A stretch of 44,540 bases of DNA from Escherichia phage vB_EcoS-phiEc4. This document shows, one piece after another, positions 1,264 through 41,960 of the stretch (position 1 is the stretch's first letter; each line of letters starts with the position of its first letter). A program made the translations under genes and the position numbers. The stretch lies in the sequence record MZ576218. One strand, given 5' to 3'. The notes below the pieces were generated by a model, which was given only the letters and a program-made list of their open reading frames with translations, ran no database searches and was not told where the DNA came from.

Positions 1264-2745
1264 ATGTTAACTATGAACGGTCAGAATCAGGGTGTTAAGA
1301 CAAAACACCGGGAATGGCTGCATCACTTCGATAAATGGCAGAAGGTACGCCACGCGCTGGAAGGCGACCTTATTCGCTATCTGCGCAACGTCGGGAAGAA
1401 CGAACCTGACCCGACCTACGCAGCCCAGCGCCAGGAAGAATACGAGAACGGTGCTATCTGTTACAACTTCACTAAACGTACCCTGGCGGGGATGACGGGG
1501 TCAGTGATGCGCAAAGACCCTGAGCAGATTATCCCGCCTGAACTTGAGTACCTGTTGCACAACGCTGACGGTTCGGGTGTAGGGCTGTGGCAGCACGCGC
1601 AGGATACGTTAATGGAGATTGACTCGATAGGACGCGGTGGGTTGCTGGTGGATGCCCCGGAAACAGCCGCAGCAACGGCGGCAGAGCAGAACGCGGGATT
1701 ATTAAACCCGGTAATCGCATTCTATACCGCGGAGAACATTATCAACTGGAGACTCACCCGCATCGGTTCAGTGAACCGCGTGACGATGGTTGTATTGCGT
1801 GAGGCATGGGAATACTCGGAACCAGGCGCTGAGTTTGAAACAAAATTCGGCGAGCAATACCGCGTCCTTGACCTGATTGACGGTCGCTACCGCCAGCGCA
1901 TCTACCGCTTCGATGCCGAAGGTGGCGCACAGGATGAAGTAATCGAAATCTTCCCGGAACTCGGCGAACAGTTGCGCGGTAAAATCCCGTTCACGTTCAT
2001 TGGCGCAAGCAACAACGACGCCACTATAGACGATGCGCCTTTACTGCCGTTAGCTGAGCTAAATATAGGACACTTCAGAAATTCGGCCGATGTGGAAGAG
2101 GCCAGCTTTATAGTAGGTCAACCGACACTGTTCATTGCCCCCGGCGAGAACATGAGCATGGAGCAGTGGAAAGAAGCCAACCCACACGGCATACGCATGG
2201 GGTCGCGTTCAGGCCACAACATCGGCTCCGGCGGAAATGCGTTTCTGGTTCAGGCGGCGGAAACTAACCTCGCCAAACAGAATATGCTGGATAAAGAGAA
2301 TCAGGCCATCCAGATTGGCGCGCAGCTTATCACCCCGACGCAGCAAATCACCGCGGAATCGGCCCGCCTGCAACGCGGCGCCGACACGTCAGTCATGGCA
2401 ACAATAGCACGTAATGTAAGCATGGCGTATACCGATGCGTTGCGCTGGGTTGCGGGTATGCTTGGGCTTAGTGAAGATACTGAGATTGAGTTCAAGCTGA
2501 ATATGGAATTCTTCCTGCAACCTATGACAGCTCAGGACCGCGCTCAGTGGATGGCGGATATTAACGCTGGCCTGCTACCCGCCACCGCTTACTATGCTGC
2601 GTTGCGCAAGGCAGGTGTGACTGACTGGACAGATGAGGACATTCAGAACGCTATTGAAGACGCACCTCTGCCGTTGGGTTCTGTTGCTCAGGTAGCGGGA
2701 GAGATTCCGCAGTCGGCGCAGCAACAGGACACCACTCAGCAGTAA
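1264..2745 (+). CDS. portal protein
   Basis: 493 aa ORF directly after terL, size and position typical of portal; acidic C-terminus. Confidence 0.75.
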   Translation: MLTMNGQNQGVKTKHREWLHHFDKWQKVRHALEGDLIRYLRNVGKNEPDPTYAAQRQEEYENGAICYNFTKRTLAGMTGSVMRKDPEQIIPPELEYLLHNADGSGVGLWQHAQDTLMEIDSIGRGGLLVDAPETAAATAAEQNAGLLNPVIAFYTAENIINWRLTRIGSVNRVTMVVLREAWEYSEPGAEFETKFGEQYRVLDLIDGRYRQRIYRFDAEGGAQDEVIEIFPELGEQLRGKIPFTFIGASNNDATIDDAPLLPLAELNIGHFRNSADVEEASFIVGQPTLFIAPGENMSMEQWKEANPHGIRMGSRSGHNIGSGGNAFLVQAAETNLAKQNMLDKENQAIQIGAQLITPTQQITAESARLQRGADTSVMATIARNVSMAYTDALRWVAGMLGLSEDTEIEFKLNMEFFLQPMTAQDRAQWMADINAGLLPATAYYAALRKAGVTDWTDEDIQNAIEDAPLPLGSVAQVAGEIPQSAQQQDTTQQ

Positions 2746-24919: not shown

Positions 24920-26340
24920 TTCTTACTCCTACGTTTCATATAATTAAGTAGTTCATCCTGTACAGACCTTTTCTCGTCTGTACGCGCCGCAACAACCTCG
25001 TCCAGAGTGTCTTTAGCAACGATGTGATAAAGGAACACCGGGCGCTCGTGACCCGCCTGTTTCTGGCGGACTGGGCCTATGCGCTCAACAACCTGCAAAT
25101 AGTGCTCAAGGTTCCAGCCTTGCGAGATGAACGCCAGATGATGACCCCCGTCCTGTAAATTCAAACCATGCCCGGCTGACGCAGGATGCACGCATAAAAT
25201 CTCGATTTCCCCACGGTTCCACGCTTCCATCTGCTTGTTCCCCCTAGCGCCTTTGGCGAACGCCTGTGCCTGTGGGAATCGCTTAAGGATACGCTCCAGT
25301 TCGTGTTTAAACTGATAGGCTACCAGCAACGGCGCACCCTGCAACTCCTCAACAATCGACTCGAGCGCATCCAGTTTCGTGTCGTGCACTTTCTCCCAGT
25401 CTTTGGTCGCTTCGCCGTCTGGCCCGGATACATATACAGCACCAGATGCAATCTGCAAGCACTTTGAGGTCTTCGCCGCAGCGTTAGCCGCTTCAACTTC
25501 CCCGCTCTCCAGTTCTGCGAATAACTTCTCCTCCATATCTATGTACGCCTGACGCGCTTTCTTCGGCAGGTCTATTTCCACCGGTACGATAACAGGCGCT
25601 TCACAACCAAACCACTCGGCAGGGTCTATGGTCAGGCTGATGTCTTTCATCTTCTGATGAATCTCATTATCCGCACCCGGTCGTGCATGATACTCGCGGG
25701 CCATAGCCGATTTACCTTTCTGTACCGAGTTAAACCAGCGGTCGGTGAATGCTGTGTACGAAGAGCCGAGGCGCTCGCCAGCGTCGATAAACCAGTTCTG
25801 ACCCCACAAGTCTTTGAGGCCGTTTGGTGACGGTGTGCCTGTCAGGTTGATGAAACGCTTAACCTTTCCGAACGCAACCTTGCTGAGCGCCTTTGCCCGC
25901 TTGCTACCACCCGAACGGCTGCGGAACGATTTAAGCTTCGTGCTTTCATCGGCAACGATAACCGTAAAAGGCCAGTCGTCTTTGCCGTAGTAGTCAATTA
26001 GCCACTCGATAACTTCGTAGTTAGTGCACACCACGTTAGCATCTGACTCCAGCGCTGCGATGCGGCGCTTCTCCGAACCAGTTGCATCTACGACACGCAG
26101 ACAAGGGAATTGCCATTTCTCTTGTTCAGCAGGCCACGTACCGGACGCAACACGTAACGGGGCAAGGATTAACACGCGGTCCTCTTCCGTAAGCTGCCCG
26201 TTGCGGAACAGGCGGTTGAGCACCCACATAGTGGAGGAGGTTTTACCTCCCCCCATTCCGCACCAGATATTACAGCGCGGGTGTTGCAGCATGAACGAGG
26301 TCATGAGCTTCTGGTACTCGCGTCTTTGAAACTTACTCAT
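24916..26340 (-). CDS. SNF2-family helicase
   Basis: 474 aa; Walker A GMGGGKT, DExx box DESTK, motif III LTGTPSPN. Confidence 0.75.
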   Translation of the reverse strand: MSKFQRREYQKLMTSFMLQHPRCNIWCGMGGGKTSSTMWVLNRLFRNGQLTEEDRVLILAPLRVASGTWPAEQEKWQFPCLRVVDATGSEKRRIAALESDANVVCTNYEVIEWLIDYYGKDDWPFTVIVADESTKLKSFRSRSGGSKRAKALSKVAFGKVKRFINLTGTPSPNGLKDLWGQNWFIDAGERLGSSYTAFTDRWFNSVQKGKSAMAREYHARPGADNEIHQKMKDISLTIDPAEWFGCEAPVIVPVEIDLPKKARQAYIDMEEKLFAELESGEVEAANAAAKTSKCLQIASGAVYVSGPDGEATKDWEKVHDTKLDALESIVEELQGAPLLVAYQFKHELERILKRFPQAQAFAKGARGNKQMEAWNRGEIEILCVHPASAGHGLNLQDGGHHLAFISQGWNLEHYLQVVERIGPVRQKQAGHERPVFLYHIVAKDTLDEVVAARTDEKRSVQDELLNYMKRRSKK

Positions 26341-27277
26341 TTACCGCCCCCATGAATGCCTTTATAAATTCAGCGGCTACTTGCGGGACGATGGCATTGC
26401 CGTAACCGCGCAATCGTCCCACTCTGGCGGGTATCCCATTAGCCAGCGGGAATGCGCCGGGTTCAACTGGCCGGAATTTTCCATCCCGGCAGCCGAGCCA
26501 GTCAGCATCTGACCAGAAGCCGTGATGCGAATTGGTTGCGTTATCGCCGCTGCTTGTGCCACGTCTTGAGGTCCACCCTTCCTCTGAATCTCCGATAGTG
26601 CCCCCTCTAGTGTTCTCACGTTCTTTTCCCCGTCCGCACTGCGAGGAGTAGGCCAATTCGTCAGTTTTAGCCCCTGTTCCGTTGAGTAGTCCAGCCTGTC
26701 GAATGTTCTGTCCTTCCCGTCCTTGCGGATAACAGTCTCTCCGCTCCCTTTGTAATCGTTCGCGGTCGGTGTCGGCCAATTCGTGCGCACCAAAGAAGAG
26801 TCGTTCTCTTTTGTGCGGAGCGCCGACGCTACAAGCTGGGAGTACGGCAAACCCGACGGCGTAGTCTTCTCCTTCCAGGTGAGTTTGTAAATCGCACATC
26901 CACGATTTTGCAATTGCTGGCGCAACCTGTTCCCCAAAGAGGACTGGAGGGTGGCACTCGCTGATGAGGTCAAGGAATACGGGCGCGAGGTGTCTCGGGT
27001 CGAACTGTCCGAGTTGCTTTCCTGCCGTGCTAAACGGTTGGCAAGGCGGGCTTCCCGTCCAGAGAGGCGCATCTTCCGGAACTCCCGCAAGTCTGAGCGC
27101 GAGAGGCCAGCCGCCGATACCAGCGAAAAAATGACACTGGGTGAATCCGTCGAGGTCTTCTGGCTTAACTTCAGTAATGCTTCTTTCATCTACAACTCCA
27201 AAAGGTATGTGACCCTGTTTTATTAATTCACGCAGCCACGCGGCTGCGCCTTTATCCCATTCGTTGTAATAGTTCAT
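26333..27277 (-). CDS. DNA (cytosine-5) methyltransferase
   Basis: 314 aa; motif I FAGIGG, motif IV SPPCQPFS, motif VIII KRERLFF, motif X GNAIVPQVA; atypical low-complexity variable region. Confidence 0.7.
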   Translation of the reverse strand: MNYYNEWDKGAAAWLRELIKQGHIPFGVVDERSITEVKPEDLDGFTQCHFFAGIGGWPLALRLAGVPEDAPLWTGSPPCQPFSTAGKQLGQFDPRHLAPVFLDLISECHPPVLFGEQVAPAIAKSWMCDLQTHLEGEDYAVGFAVLPACSVGAPHKRERLFFGAHELADTDRERLQRERRDCYPQGREGQNIRQAGLLNGTGAKTDELAYSSQCGRGKERENTRGGTIGDSEEGWTSRRGTSSGDNATNSHHGFWSDADWLGCRDGKFRPVEPGAFPLANGIPARVGRLRGYGNAIVPQVAAEFIKAFMGAVNE

Positions 27278-27465
27278 TTTGCCACCAGAACTAACTCTTT
27301 ACGCCCGAACGCCGTAACGTTACCGGTTACATCTTCGATAACCAGTTTACCGTTCGACTCGACGTACACCGTATCAACGGCAACAGGCCGACGGGTCTTA
27401 ACGTTGAAAATCATGTCGCCAGGTACGATGTCACGTGCTGGTTTGCGGTCATATTCGTGTTTCAT
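27274..27465 (-). CDS. hypothetical protein
   Basis: 63 aa ORF, ATGA-coupled to methyltransferase gene; preceded by P_B promoter. Confidence 0.5.
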   Translation of the reverse strand: MKHEYDRKPARDIVPGDMIFNVKTRRPVAVDTVYVESNGKLVIEDVTGNVTAFGRKELVLVAK

Positions 27466-27495
27466 TTCTCAATTACTTATATTGTTGGTGTAGGA

Positions 27496-27783
27496 CTAAC
27501 TATAATAGTTCGCTATTAGGGCGTCAACCTGTTTAAACGAACCAACGACAAAAACATTAGCACCACGCTTACGCATCCGCTCGTGCTCCCGTAACTGGTG
27601 TGGATCCGGCTTCGTGCTTTCGTCTTTCTTTATCTCGACGAACCAGATGACGCCGCCGGGGAGAATTACCAGCAGGTCAGGGGCGCCGGAACGTCCTTCG
27701 TAGGAAAGTTTACGAACGAGGCCACCAATGGCCTCGAATCGGTCTTTTGCGTATTTCTGTATTTTGCCCTCAGGCGTACTCAT
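27496..27783 (-). CDS. VRR-NUC domain nuclease
   Basis: track ORF 27496..27819; likely start ATG 27783 with RBS GAGGGG; motif GAPDLLVILPGGVIWFVEIKK. Confidence 0.7.
   Translation of the reverse strand: MSTPEGKIQKYAKDRFEAIGGLVRKLSYEGRSGAPDLLVILPGGVIWFVEIKKDESTKPDPHQLREHERMRKRGANVFVVGSFKQVDALIANYYS
27499..27527 (-). promoter_or_regulatory. promoter P_B (TTGACG-17-TATAGT) with AATAG-TTCG-CTATT palindrome in spacer
   Basis: reverse complement reads TTGACGCCCTAATAGCGAACTATTATAGT; same layout as 31259..31287 and 34170..34198. Confidence 0.55.
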
Positions 27784-27868
27784 CCACACACCCCTCACGT
27801 TTCGTATGCGCAATACCACAGCGCGGACAGATCCGGCGGTCTTCTTCGTAGAACCAGTAAATTTTCAT
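27770..27868 (-). CDS. 32-aa Cys-rich micro-protein (MKIYWFYEEDRRICPRCGIAHTKREGCVDEYA)
   Basis: not in track; ATGA overlap with upstream micro-ORF; CxxC..H..C spacing. Confidence 0.25.
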   Translation of the reverse strand: MKIYWFYEEDRRICPRCGIAHTKREGCVDEYA

Positions 27869-27996
27869 TCCAGCACCCACAGATAAATTGTTACTAACAT
27901 ACCTAATACGGCAACCATCATGCCGTATTGACCCTCGTGACAGTAGACACCGGCGGCGAATCCCGCCAGTACCGCAATAATCAGTTTACTTGGCAT
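27865..27996 (-). CDS. 43-aa hydrophobic micro-protein (MPSKLIIAVLAGFAAGVYCHEGQYGMMVAVLGMLVTIYLWVLE)
   Basis: not in track; start overlaps 3' end of polymerase gene. Confidence 0.3.
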   Translation of the reverse strand: MPSKLIIAVLAGFAAGVYCHEGQYGMMVAVLGMLVTIYLWVLE

Positions 27997-30250
27997 ATCG
28001 CTTCATCTCCGCACCTTCAGCTACAAGAGGGAACCCCTCCGCCCATTCCGGCAATTCGCACATCAACCGCTCAAGCTCTGCTACATTGTATTCCGGTGAA
28101 TCTGGTGTCTCGCAGATAATCTCATCGTGTACGTGAAGTACAATCGGGTAGCCGTTTGCTTCTACGTTCAGCAGGGCATTAGCCAGCAAATCACGGCACA
28201 ATGCCTGAGTGCAGTTTTCCACCAGTTTACCGGAGTAGGTGTACTGGAAGCCCCACTGCCTGGTTAACTGATTTTCACCCTGATACTTGATGCGCACGTT
28301 AGTAGAAACTTTTCCGTCTTCGTCTGTCTCTTTTGACACGCTCAACCCGACGCCCGGGTATGACATAACGCGACCTGACGGCAACGTCATGCGCAACCAC
28401 CAACCAGCGACTTTGTTGCCGTTGTTGTCTGTTTCTACGTTGCGAGAAAACTTAACCCCGCGAGGGCCAGCGGTGAACTCTTTACCTGGATTGCGGATAG
28501 CTGCCATAGCGGCGTCTTCAATATCCCGCCAGAACGCTACTGTTTCCGGGTGGGACTCCCGCCACATACGCTTGATAGCGTCGCAGGTACGCCACACTTT
28601 CTTATCAAGAATATATGATGGTCGGTCATCTTTTTCACCGGGCCGCGGAGGTCGCTTTGCTTCCTGAATACGCGCCCATTCATAGCCGCGTGCAGTAGCG
28701 GCCCATATATGGTCCGGGAAAGTACCGTCCATTGTTTTAGCCATATCAACCAGGTTTAAGCCGAGGTTCTTAGCAAACTGAACGAAAGCACCGACACCAC
28801 CAGCATAGCCAAGTCCCAATTCACATGCTTTACCTATCTGGCGTAGGTCACTACGGCTTTCGAGAATGTAATCAGGGTCCATGCCGAACATCTTACCCGC
28901 GGTTACACAGTAAATATCCAATCCCGCACGGAAGGTATCGAGAGCGGTTTCTTCTCCCGCCAGCCATGCCAACCCGCGACCTTCAACGTTAGAGTAATCA
29001 GCTACGACAAACTTACGCCCGGCTTCCGGTATGATGCAGCTACGCACCGTCGATGCCGTTAGCTTGGCTACATCGAAACGGCGATGCGCGCGGCCTTTAA
29101 ACAACAGGTCGATTCCGTAGGACAATGGGTGTGTTACTCTCCACCAATCCTTCTCTGACATCCAGTCATAACGTACTTTCTTCTTTTTATTCTTCGGGTC
29201 GTCGTGATAGTACCCACGCGCGAGGTTCTGCGGCTGGAAGCCTTTACCTGCAAACCGTAACGTACGCTTAGCTCCACCATATTGTATGCAACCGCGACGG
29301 CGGTCGTCAGAAGAGCGGCCTAACAGCAGCGGGTTATATTTCGTGGACGCTGTTGACGCGGCCCCGAGGCGCATTTCGATAATCGTGCGGGCGTCGTCAG
29401 GTAAATCATCATCGGCCAGCAGGTCATTCAGCGTCGACTTCTGTGCGTTGTGTATGCGGTGTGCGGGGGCCAGTTCACGTAGAATAGGCAGAAAGTCCTT
29501 ACCGGTAAGCGAGCCGCCGTATTTACGTTGAGCTTCTTCCTGTAACTGTGCCTTGTGCTTCTCTACGGCTTCAATCGCGGCTTCCGCCAGTGCGACGTCA
29601 ACCTTAAATCCGCGGTCGTTGATTAACTGGTCAAGTTCCAGTACACGGTCTTCGAACTCGGAGTTACCCCAACGCGGCAGCTTATGGAAGACTTCACGCA
29701 TCGCAGTGATGTCGCTCACGGCGTACCTGATGAACATCGCCCACTCGTCAGGGTGAGTTTCTGCGGTGTAGCGGCGGATTTTGTAGTTCTTCGGCGTCGG
29801 TTTAGAGAAACGCTTAATCAGAGCCTTGCCGCGTTTATCTTTCGCGTTGTCTGCAGACACGCCCAGCACTTCGCACAGCGCATCAAGAGAACCCGGCAGC
29901 GCGTGACGGAACGCCCAAATCATAGTATCAATGGTGTTACTTACCGGAATATCAAAGCCCCAGCAGTGTTTCATGATTAGGCGATCGAAAAGTCCACCGT
30001 TGTGCCACACAATCTTGATGCGGCTGTTGGGCTTAACAAGGCGGCGCAGTGCGCGGTGCAAATCCCCCGGCATGTCGCTGCCGTCGGTGCAATCCCATAC
30101 CTGCACAGGCTCTTCGTCAAAAGCATAGGTACAGATAAGCACTTCGGTTGACGGGTGTTCAGCGTAAGCGTAGGAACCTACTTTCTTCAAATCGATGTCG
30201 CTGTAGGTTTCAAAGTCTAAGTAAAGCAATGTGTTCATAGTCTGTACCAC
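27986..30250 (-). CDS. DNA polymerase, family A with 3'-5' exonuclease domain
   Basis: 754 aa; Exo I LYLDFETYS; motif B-like RQIGKACELGLGYAGG; motif C VHDEI. Confidence 0.85.
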   Translation of the reverse strand: MVQTMNTLLYLDFETYSDIDLKKVGSYAYAEHPSTEVLICTYAFDEEPVQVWDCTDGSDMPGDLHRALRRLVKPNSRIKIVWHNGGLFDRLIMKHCWGFDIPVSNTIDTMIWAFRHALPGSLDALCEVLGVSADNAKDKRGKALIKRFSKPTPKNYKIRRYTAETHPDEWAMFIRYAVSDITAMREVFHKLPRWGNSEFEDRVLELDQLINDRGFKVDVALAEAAIEAVEKHKAQLQEEAQRKYGGSLTGKDFLPILRELAPAHRIHNAQKSTLNDLLADDDLPDDARTIIEMRLGAASTASTKYNPLLLGRSSDDRRRGCIQYGGAKRTLRFAGKGFQPQNLARGYYHDDPKNKKKKVRYDWMSEKDWWRVTHPLSYGIDLLFKGRAHRRFDVAKLTASTVRSCIIPEAGRKFVVADYSNVEGRGLAWLAGEETALDTFRAGLDIYCVTAGKMFGMDPDYILESRSDLRQIGKACELGLGYAGGVGAFVQFAKNLGLNLVDMAKTMDGTFPDHIWAATARGYEWARIQEAKRPPRPGEKDDRPSYILDKKVWRTCDAIKRMWRESHPETVAFWRDIEDAAMAAIRNPGKEFTAGPRGVKFSRNVETDNNGNKVAGWWLRMTLPSGRVMSYPGVGLSVSKETDEDGKVSTNVRIKYQGENQLTRQWGFQYTYSGKLVENCTQALCRDLLANALLNVEANGYPIVLHVHDEIICETPDSPEYNVAELERLMCELPEWAEGFPLVAEGAEMKRYAK

Positions 30251-40862: not shown

Positions 40863-41171
40863 TTGGATAAATTTACTGAAACAGTGACAGGCTGGCTTCT
40901 CGCTGCCGCGCTAGCCGGAGGGGTAATCGGACTACGACAACATAAGTCTGTTATTTCTGGCCCCATCGACGGATTCTGCTTTATCGCAACCGGCTTCACT
41001 TGCGCTGTATTCGGCGCGCCTCTTGCCGCTCAATGGTTCGGTATTACCGGAGAGCGCGAGATAGCTGGCCTCGGATTCATCATCGCAATTCTCTGGATGC
41101 CCATCTATTCCCGTCTCTCCGGTATCGTCTCTGGAGAATACATCGCTCGTCGAGGAGGCACAGATGAATGA
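40863..41171 (+). CDS. holin (three predicted TM segments)
   Basis: 102 aa, TTG start; hydrophobic segments and charged C-terminus; immediately upstream of endolysin. Confidence 0.6.
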   Translation: MDKFTETVTGWLLAAALAGGVIGLRQHKSVISGPIDGFCFIATGFTCAVFGAPLAAQWFGITGEREIAGLGFIIAILWMPIYSRLSGIVSGEYIARRGGTDE

Positions 41172-41436
41172 GTTATTCTGGTTCGGCGGTATGCTGGCAA
41201 TCGGAGGCACATCGCTGTTTAATGTATATCACCCCAGCGTGGATGACGGATTATTTGGCCGGGTGCTCTATATCCTGACTGCCATCGTCTGTGCTGCCGG
41301 ATGTATCCACCTGTTACAGGGCAGCATGTCACCAACGCTGCCTGAGACGTTAATCACATTAGTTGCGCTGCGTCAGATTCGCCAGGTGTGGCTGTCATAC
41401 GGAGGACATAAGCGTGTCTCGAAATATTTCAGATAA
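41164..41436 (+). CDS. second lysis membrane protein (holin or antiholin-like)
   Basis: 90 aa with two hydrophobic segments between holin and endolysin. Confidence 0.45.
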   Translation: MNELFWFGGMLAIGGTSLFNVYHPSVDDGLFGRVLYILTAIVCAAGCIHLLQGSMSPTLPETLITLVALRQIRQVWLSYGGHKRVSKYFR

Positions 41437-41899
41437 TGGATTGCATTTTACCGCCGCGTTCGAGGGATTCCGAGGAACTGCGTATCGCGCTACACCGAAT
41501 GAGAAGTACCTGACTATTGGGTATGGAAGCTATGGCCCGCATGTTAAGGCGGGGCAGACCATCACTCCAGGACAAGGCCTCCTGTTACTTAATCGCGATA
41601 TGGCTAAAGCCGTAGCTGCGGTTGATGCGGCAGCGCACCATTCACTGACACAGGCACAGTTCGACGCTGTGTGTGACCTGGTCTACAACGCAGGCGCTGG
41701 CGTGATTGCCGCTACCACGGGCACAGGTAAGGCGCTGCGTTCTGGTGACATCGAGACGCTGCGGGCTAAGCTGACACTGTTCATCAACCAGAACGGCAGA
41801 CCACTACTCGGCCTGCGTCGCCGTACAGCAGGTCGTCTGGCGCTGTTTGACGGTAAACCGTGGCAAGAGGCGGAGGCAATTGGGAGGGCTGTTAGATGA
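41414..41899 (+). CDS. endolysin, phage lysozyme (GH24-like)
   Basis: track ORF 41363..41899; likely GTG start 41414 with RBS GGAGG; motif FEGFRGTAY...TIGYG typical of T4-type lysozymes. Confidence 0.8.
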   Translation: MSRNISDNGLHFTAAFEGFRGTAYRATPNEKYLTIGYGSYGPHVKAGQTITPGQGLLLLNRDMAKAVAAVDAAAHHSLTQAQFDAVCDLVYNAGAGVIAATTGTGKALRSGDIETLRAKLTLFINQNGRPLLGLRRRTAGRLALFDGKPWQEAEAIGRAVR

Positions 41900-41960
41900 T
41901 GGAAGAAAACTGGGACGTATAGTAAACTTACTCCCACGCTGCTTGTGCTTGCACCACCCG

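Follow-up and report, generated by a model that had tools for sequence, protein, structure and literature searches.

Escherichia phage vB_EcoS-phiEc4 (sequence record MZ576218; 44,540 nucleotides (nt), the whole stretch analysed here and called the window) carries two very short open reading frames (ORFs), which we designate m1 and m2, between its DNA polymerase gene and a gene for a VRR-NUC-type nuclease. We conclude that m1 and m2 are very probably genuine small protein-coding genes within the minus-strand replication-gene operon of this Kagunavirus (Guernseyvirinae) phage. The conclusion is carried by purifying selection in the two proposed frames only, which supports the suggestion, made in a preliminary description of the window, that short ORFs in such gaps should be read as real. 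Coordinates refer to the whole window, and the polymerase, m1, m2 and VRR-NUC genes all lie on its minus strand:

27986..30238, minus strand: family A DNA polymerase gene, identified from the ORF list and from the DNA polymerase I label in near-identical records
27865..27996, minus strand: m1, 43 amino acids (aa) (MPSKLIIAVLAGFAAGVYCHEGQYGMMVAVLGMLVTIYLWVLE); ATG at 27996..27994, stop TGA at 27867..27865
27865..27868, minus strand: 4-nt ATGA in which the m2 start (ATG) overlaps the m1 stop (TGA)
27770..27868, minus strand: m2, 32 aa (MKIYWFYEEDRRICPRCGIAHTKREGCVDEYA); ATG at 27868..27866, stop TGA at 27772..27770
27496..27783, minus strand: VRR-NUC-type nuclease gene, 95 aa; ATG at 27783..27781, with a 14-nt overlap with m2

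The preliminary description had linked the polymerase stop to the VRR-NUC start through successive overlaps of the two micro-ORFs, and its coordinates, sizes and overlaps proved exact when we re-read the sequence and the ORF list. The longest polymerase ORF begins at a GTG (30250), and the ATG annotated in relatives lies 12 nt further downstream, giving a protein of 750 aa. The polymerase stop TAA occupies 27986..27988, and the final 8 coding nucleotides together with this stop are shared with m1 (an 11-nt overlap). The junction sits in a long run of minus-strand genes whose annotations concern mostly DNA replication, recombination and modification. Across 27400..28400 the window is 99.9% identical to phages vB_Eco_K-01 and K-02, 99.8% identical to phiEc3 and 98% identical to Golestan, all of them Kagunavirus members of the Guernseyvirinae; roughly 400 more Escherichia and Salmonella phage records match this region at lower identity.

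Purifying selection acts in the m1 and m2 frames

With the VRR-NUC protein as the point of entry, we retrieved 79 loci from IMG/VR and mapped in each of them the C-terminal end of the polymerase together with m1, m2 and VRR-NUC. Wherever a Guernseyvirinae locus has m1 (44 loci), the coding length of m1 is exactly 129 nt, with an ATG start in 43 of them, and m1 begins 11 nt before the polymerase stop, apart from two loci in which an HNH endonuclease gene lies between. The overlap between m1 and m2 is −4 in all 44 of these loci, taking the form GTGA in two, and m2 is present, with its first 28 codons open, in 50 of 50 loci. Conservation of the frames in relatives had been proposed as a check on the two micro-ORFs, and they came through it, with the same frames and overlaps recurring in every Guernseyvirinae locus that has them. 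In a tblastn search of 50,697 GenBank phage records, m2 was found in 444 and m1 in 223.

We next compared ratios of nonsynonymous to synonymous substitution (dN/dS; pairwise Nei–Gojobori estimates from 39–44 distinct sequences in about 50 Guernseyvirinae loci). The ratio is 0.21 for m1 and 0.08–0.10 for m2, with control values of 0.09 for the 119 C-terminal codons of the polymerase and 0.13 for VRR-NUC. The two other sense frames gave ratios of 1.1–2.7, and the antisense frames either reached at least 0.85 or contained stops, the sole antisense frame with a low ratio being interrupted by stops in every sequence. Variable sites are concentrated at third codon positions in both ORFs (10, 8 and 23 at positions 1, 2 and 3 of m2; 21, 20 and 30 in m1).

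Translation signals are consistent with coupling of m2 to m1

The strength of each Shine–Dalgarno (SD) sequence was calculated as the energy of its duplex with the 16S anti-SD, for which the medians were −6.4 kcal/mol over 78 annotated genes and −2.2 kcal/mol at random positions. Two SD elements were located at the junction:

28007..28010, minus strand: GGAG SD-like element of m1, within the last polymerase codons and ending 10 nt before the m1 ATG
27791..27796, minus strand: GAGGGG SD element of VRR-NUC, inside the 3′ end of m2

The m1 value (−6.6 kcal/mol) is typical and equals the median among relatives, which range from −10.2 to −3.3 kcal/mol. That of VRR-NUC (−8.8 kcal/mol) falls in the strongest tenth of the annotated genes, only 9 of the 78 being stronger. 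For m2 the energy is −3.7 kcal/mol in the window, where 68 of the 78 genes are stronger, and −3.7 to −3.1 kcal/mol in all 44 loci. Since m2 combines a weak SD in every locus with an invariant ATGA, it fits coupling by termination and reinitiation, and its translation probably depends on termination at m1. The pattern of translational coupling that had been described for this pair is thus consistent with real coupling, although we infer both the coupling and translation itself from sequence. Between the polymerase stop and the VRR-NUC start, a scan for promoters and terminators returned no such site, with counts not above those in shuffled sequences.

Overlaps of this kind are common in these genomes. 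Golestan, as annotated in RefSeq, has 69 same-strand gene junctions, of which 40 are overlapping (24 with a 4-nt and 5 with a 1-nt overlap), and among 45 junctions between Golestan genes that map intact onto the window, 14 have ATGA and 4 have TAATG or TGATG. The recurrence of the ATGA/TAATG pattern across the genome, reported earlier for the window, is therefore borne out.

A natural deletion joins the m1 start to m2

Six of the IMG/VR loci have no m1 (L019, at about 2257..2358, and L037, L038, L040, L043 and L051). In these m1-less loci, a deletion of 116 nt, bounded by copies of an 8-nt direct repeat (TGATTATC), has removed the body of m1; the same repeat is present at the 5′ ends of m1 and m2 in Salmonella-phage relatives. 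The ORF next to the polymerase now reads MLSKLIIYYFREEDCRICPRCG..., with the first four m1 codons joined in frame to m2 (MLSK-LIIYYFREEDCRICPRCG...), and 116 nt is precisely the length that brings the two frames into register. The fusion lineage therefore places the m2 body behind the m1 initiation region, which has an SD of −6.1 kcal/mol. The deletion may have been a single ancestral event.

As m2 occurs in 444 GenBank records and m1 in 223, the fused architecture is probably that of roughly half of the GenBank Guernseyvirinae, judging from these sequence matches. The persistence of the fusion in a large clade with m2 intact indicates that m2 is the selected product and m1 is dispensable. Accordingly, m2 is a core gene of the subfamily, and m1 is an accessory gene that has been lost in about half of the known genomes. 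We also considered an obligate complex of the two proteins, an idea that is weakened by the persistence of m2 without m1 in about half of the relatives.

m1 is predicted to be a helical hairpin and m2 a single-knuckle zinc peptide

The m1 protein matches phrog_10404 over its full length (E = 1.5e-31; residues 1–43 on profile positions 1–43 of 43). An AlphaFold2 (AF2) model built from a 29-sequence alignment has helices at residues 2–20 and 23–42 with a tight turn between them (predicted local distance difference test score (pLDDT) 88.9). On this model we are confident that m1 is a helical hairpin; it is hydrophobic, and we predict it to be of the membrane type. Residues Y18, H20, E21 and Y24, at or beside the turn, are invariant, as are scattered positions in the helices. 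All homologues are 43 aa long, at least 77% identical and confined to this phage group, and one record labels its m1 orthologue a ‘TMhelix containing protein’. A Foldseek search of the hairpin against viral structures (BFVD) returned generic hairpins only, with a best E of 1.8 and none at 0.001.

Two identities were considered for m1 and rejected. Its match to Pfam EMC6 (21.4 bits, below the cutoff of 23.3) reflects the generic likeness of hydrophobic hairpins. A role as a holin or another lysis-cassette protein is disfavoured by its place in the replication operon and by the lack of matches to holin families in Pfam, PHROGs and NCBIfam; in the relative Golestan, the holins and endolysin are encoded at 40866..41902, about 13 kb from the position of m1.

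The m2 protein matches phrog_38225 (E = 3.4e-26; residues 1–32 on profile positions 5–36 of 36). It contains the motif CPxCG...H...C, with CPRCG in the window and potential ligands at C14, C17, H21 and C27. Across the 50 loci, C14 and C27 are invariant, C17 is kept in 49 and H21 in 48, and the invariant core comprises I3, Y4, EED8–10, R12, I13, C14, R16, G18 and TKREGC22–27. The CPxCG knuckle probably binds one zinc ion.

Database searches gave few further leads. Pfam and NCBIfam scans of m1 and m2 yielded nothing above threshold, and a search of PDB sequences with m2 gave sub-threshold matches only (best E 0.25), all to rubredoxin-type knuckles. An exhaustive phmmer search of 1.84 billion representatives with m2 as query yielded a single 32-aa cluster and a single m1–m2 fusion, with no relatives detected outside Guernseyvirinae; its other three matches were long proteins in which repeated short stretches were aligned. 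A protein search with the fused sequence as query returned m1 proteins of 39–46 aa and longer fusions, with no free m2 in a collection from which m2-sized entries may be absent.

The m2 orthologue JSSK01_47 of Escherichia phage JSSK01 (L084 571..669), and likewise that of BUCT825, is labelled as a dioxygenase, which is a misannotation. We rejected 3-hydroxyanthranilate 3,4-dioxygenase as an identity for m2, a 32-aa peptide compared with a cupin domain of about 170–200 aa, and one without a Pfam hit. The match to this enzyme (E of about 0.4) is limited to its C-terminal rubredoxin-like knuckle (enzyme residues 154–172), and it is evidently through this weak match that the label has spread.

Alternative explanations for the conserved frames

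Seen in one genome, m1 and m2 could be taken for chance open frames in a non-coding spacer, with coincidental overlaps. An overlapping chain of at most three ATG-started ORFs bridged the 202-nt gap in 2.3% of 20,000 mononucleotide shuffles, and in 27% when any start codon and looser spacing were allowed, so that a chain in a single genome is weak evidence only; m2 is also unannotated in several public records, RefSeq phiEc3 among them. Against such an origin, the purifying selection specific to these frames matches that on the flanking genes in strength, length, start and stop have been kept over about 50 loci, the frame-restoring fusion deletion speaks for coding, and the region folds no better than its shuffles and matches no RNA family. 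On sequence grounds, then, it is conservation rather than the chain pattern that settles whether these ORFs are genes, and we hold a chance origin to be very improbable. Conservation could instead reflect a nucleic-acid element, whether an RNA structure, a protein-binding site or a replication-related DNA site, for which the sole support is the location in the replication module. The third-position periodicity of the substitutions argues against this, as do the absence from the region of Rfam matches with E ≤ 1, a minimum free energy z-score of −0.21 and the deletion or expansion of large parts of the junction in relatives that retain the flanking genes; we consider an element of this kind extremely improbable.

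Two further proposals concern how m2 is made. It might arise only as a C-terminal extension, if ribosomes read through the UAA of the polymerase or shift from the m1 frame by −1. Indeed, m2 lies in the polymerase frame, which is free of stops for 39 codons across m1 (27869..27985, minus strand) and open back to the polymerase stop in the window and in L009, L020 and L048, and public protein sets hold seven fused proteins of 68–73 aa with an m1 N-terminus and an m2 C-terminus. However, this frame (+2 relative to m1) has a dN/dS of about 2.7 across m1, suggesting that the linker is unselected as protein, L044 has a stop immediately before the m2 ATG, and the deletion lineage would express m2 from the m1 AUG rather than as a polymerase extension. 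The fused proteins, for their part, switch frame at differing positions and occur mostly in one or two assemblies, which suggests indels or assembly errors over a programmed site. An extension of either type is, in our judgement, highly improbable. A GTG at 27880 could alternatively start m2 four codons upstream and give 36 aa, as implied by some gene callers and by the phrog_38225 profile, which has 36 positions and aligns the window peptide from position 5; most loci have GTG at this codon, with ATG in its place in L012 and L018. Yet there is no SD complementarity upstream of it (+0.7 kcal/mol), the VGAG extension lies wholly within m1 codons, the m1-less lineage keeps m2 without the extension, and RefSeq Golestan, fEg-Eco06 and JSSK01 all annotate the 32-aa form. 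We therefore regard the longer form as improbable.

Chimeric proteins of 68–92 aa in public assemblies take several forms: an m1 N-terminus with m2, m1 with read-on, and m2 with a 50-aa cassette (P0066, P0069–P0074, P0004, P0077, P0075 and P0076). Because their frames switch at different positions, they are most likely indels or assembly errors.

Several observations weigh against reading m1 and m2 as genes with the properties described above. For dN/dS, every related sequence was paired with every other, and the events compared are not independent; m1 is also short and hydrophobic, a composition that may account for part of its conservation. In L042 (a 42,572-bp genome), ACG replaces the m1 start ATG at 1800..1802, with the remainder of m1 and all of m2 intact; the change may mean that m1 translation has been lost in nature, or it may be an error of sequencing. 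The putative m2 ligands are not strictly invariant (C17Y once, H21Y once and H21Q once), position 11 is Cys in 43 of 50 loci and Arg in this window, and a single-sequence AF2 model of m2 has a low pLDDT of 62, with only a small β-hairpin at the knuckle. Finally, the proteomics and transcriptomics literature on Kagunavirus and Guernseyvirinae yielded a single transcriptome paper, on a Kagunavirus, which annotates only 57 genes and leaves m1 and m2 unresolved.

A model for expression and function

In the arrangement that we favour, one mRNA would carry polymerase, m1, m2 and VRR-NUC. The m1 AUG, 8 nt upstream of the polymerase UAA, would be used either by terminating polymerase ribosomes that restart or by ribosomes binding afresh at GGAG. 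The m1 hairpin would then insert in the inner membrane with both termini on one side and the conserved YCHEGQYG turn on the opposite side. Ribosomes ending at the m1 UGA would reinitiate at the AUG within AUGA to give m2, whose synthesis would be tied to m1 translation because m2 is almost without an SD of its own. The product would be a 32-residue peptide built around the CPxCG knuckle, probably holding one zinc ion, and VRR-NUC would be initiated independently at the strong GAGGGG inside the 3′ end of m2.

Our best guess is that m1 and m2 are small factors, either accessory or interacting with the host, and that the replication module carries them in a hypervariable slot for micro-genes. We think it unlikely that the junction is a dedicated array of translationally chained micro-genes (m1, m2 and, in relatives, one or two more cassettes of 23–64 aa), each beginning in an ATGA overlap with the stop before it. 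In such an array the universally kept m2 would work with the proteins of replication or recombination, for instance as a cofactor or regulator of VRR-NUC or the polymerase, and exchangeable membrane peptides (m1 and the cassettes of 50 and 25 aa found in relatives) would serve as host-range or anti-defence modules.

The junction varies in gene content among relatives

The interval from m2 to VRR-NUC is a hypervariable slot, with nothing in it in the window. Among relatives it can be occupied by a single-helix peptide of 23–25 aa, by a hydrophobic protein of 50 aa (phrog_14925), a soluble one of 64 aa (phrog_25645) or these two proteins together, or by an HNH endonuclease; with the sole exception of L050, whichever cassette adjoins m2 has its start 4 nt ahead of the m2 stop. 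From these longer chains we conclude that the junction is a hypervariable micro-gene slot, of which the window has the minimal two-gene form. In some relatives an HNH-type homing endonuclease gene has been inserted at one end or the other of the chain of micro-genes:

L010 2355..2507, L017 2427..2504, L007 2307..2501, L030 and L028 (two cassettes) and L022: examples of slot contents in relatives
L011 1444..2151, and also in L027: HNH insert between the polymerase and m1
L042 and L044: HNH insert of 165 aa between m2 and VRR-NUC

The insert in L011 ends ...AK* with an 11-nt overlap onto m1, the same as the end of the polymerase, and L050 has only an N-terminal endonuclease fragment, a 43-aa remnant. 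More distant phages with the polymerase/VRR-NUC pairing (L052–L082) either lack any gene in the slot or have small unrelated ORFs there, some of which are transmembrane-like or Cys-rich; no functional lead came from them.

Annotation of m1 and m2 in public records

Both ORFs are already annotated as coding sequences in several relatives, as Golestan gp38 (YP_009620118) and gp37 (YP_009620117), fEg-Eco06 g059 and g058, and JSSK01_48 and JSSK01_47. The Golestan and fEg-Eco06 proteins are identical to m1 and m2 and have the same positions and overlaps; that is, they are the same genes. Entries for the orthologues and the PHROG families read ‘hypothetical protein’ or ‘unknown function’, apart from the dioxygenase label of JSSK01_47. 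Only m1 is annotated in phiEc3, and m2 is omitted from many records, including many of Jerseyvirus.

Thus, m1 and m2 are real but ordinary genes, already annotated and not a new discovery, and they leave knowledge of phage gene organisation and translational coupling unchanged. Their value is mainly for annotation: in this phage group, ORFs of 30–45 codons that tile a gap through start/stop overlaps are genuine genes subject to purifying selection, and public records are inconsistent about them, some missing m2 and others giving it a dioxygenase label. As a subfamily-wide, strongly constrained gene between two core DNA-metabolism genes, m2 is also a reasonable candidate for small-protein studies.

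The neighbouring nuclease and an ORF nested in a methyltransferase gene

The VRR-NUC protein matches the endonuclease family phrog_93 (E = 1.1e-32). Its match to Pfam PF08774 (VRR_NUC) is sub-threshold (E = 0.081; 13.4 bits against a cutoff of 23.8), and the public labels of the gene vary between VRR-NUC, Holliday junction resolvase and restriction endonuclease. A sigma-70-like site is found at the 3′ end of the gene (27499..27527, minus strand; TTGACG, a 17-nt spacer and TATAGT; 10 of 12 matches), upstream of a 63-aa ORF at 27274..27465 that is the stretch’s only gene to follow a 30-nt gap. Sigma-70-like sites in the region are not in excess of the shuffle expectation.

About 500 nt downstream of the VRR-NUC stop codon lies a methyltransferase gene with a second ORF nested in it:

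26333..27277, minus strand: C5 cytosine methyltransferase ORF, 314 aa, with motifs I–VIII and X (phrog_363)
26377..27189, minus strand: nested +1-frame ORF, 270 aa (phrog_1008), with WPTP repeats and the motif-IX-like LNPAHSRWLMGYPPEW

The outer and inner frames are both open in 13 length variants. In the one informative close pair, the window and L026, substitutions in the middle segment fall at third positions of the +1 frame, which marks a switch of selection to the inner frame there, and in all close pairs those at the two ends of the methyltransferase ORF follow the outer frame. Homologues of the inner protein number in the thousands. Its counterpart region in Klebsiella, Erwinia and Rhodobacter phages and in N15 (gene 58) lies, without exception, in the +1 frame of the gene annotated there, and both ORFs are annotated in K1H. 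In M.EcoHK31I, the β chain, which carries motif IX, is encoded in another frame within the α gene (PMC2836561), and the nested ORFs of the window resemble this α/β architecture, a likeness of arrangement.

Comparison with known systems

The m1/m2 junction falls within the 4-nt/1-nt overlap class of co-directional termination–reinitiation pairs, among which reporter tests found strict coupling in 13 of 14 overlapping gene pairs, including 5 from E. coli (PMC6728339). Like the pairs described by Huber et al. (2019, PMC6728339; see also PMC10666635), m1 and m2 are co-directional, with a 4-nt ATGA and a weak downstream SD. In contrast, the overlaps of the polymerase with m1 (−11) and of m2 with VRR-NUC (−14) are longer than the −4 and −1 classes examined in those studies, and m1 and VRR-NUC, unlike weak-SD m2, each have their own SD at their overlaps.

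In size, helical hairpin and hydrophobicity, m1 is similar to small two-helix phage membrane proteins such as T4-type Ac or Imm-like peptides. This likeness is generic, with no sequence relationship, and m1 differs from the Ac and Imm-like peptides in that its gene sits in the replication operon, outside any lysis or exclusion cassette.

Prokaryotic CPxCG zinc-finger micro-proteins include Brz of Halobacterium (PMC2253796) and the small zinc-finger proteins of Haloferax (PMC10117724). m2 comes from a phage and has no detected sequence homology to them (best PDB E, as above, 0.25); it has one CPxCG and an H-x5-C half-site, without a second CPxCG, whereas the known micro-proteins have paired motifs. 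It is nonetheless like them in its tiny size, its CPxCG knuckle and the further putative Cys/His ligands a few residues downstream.

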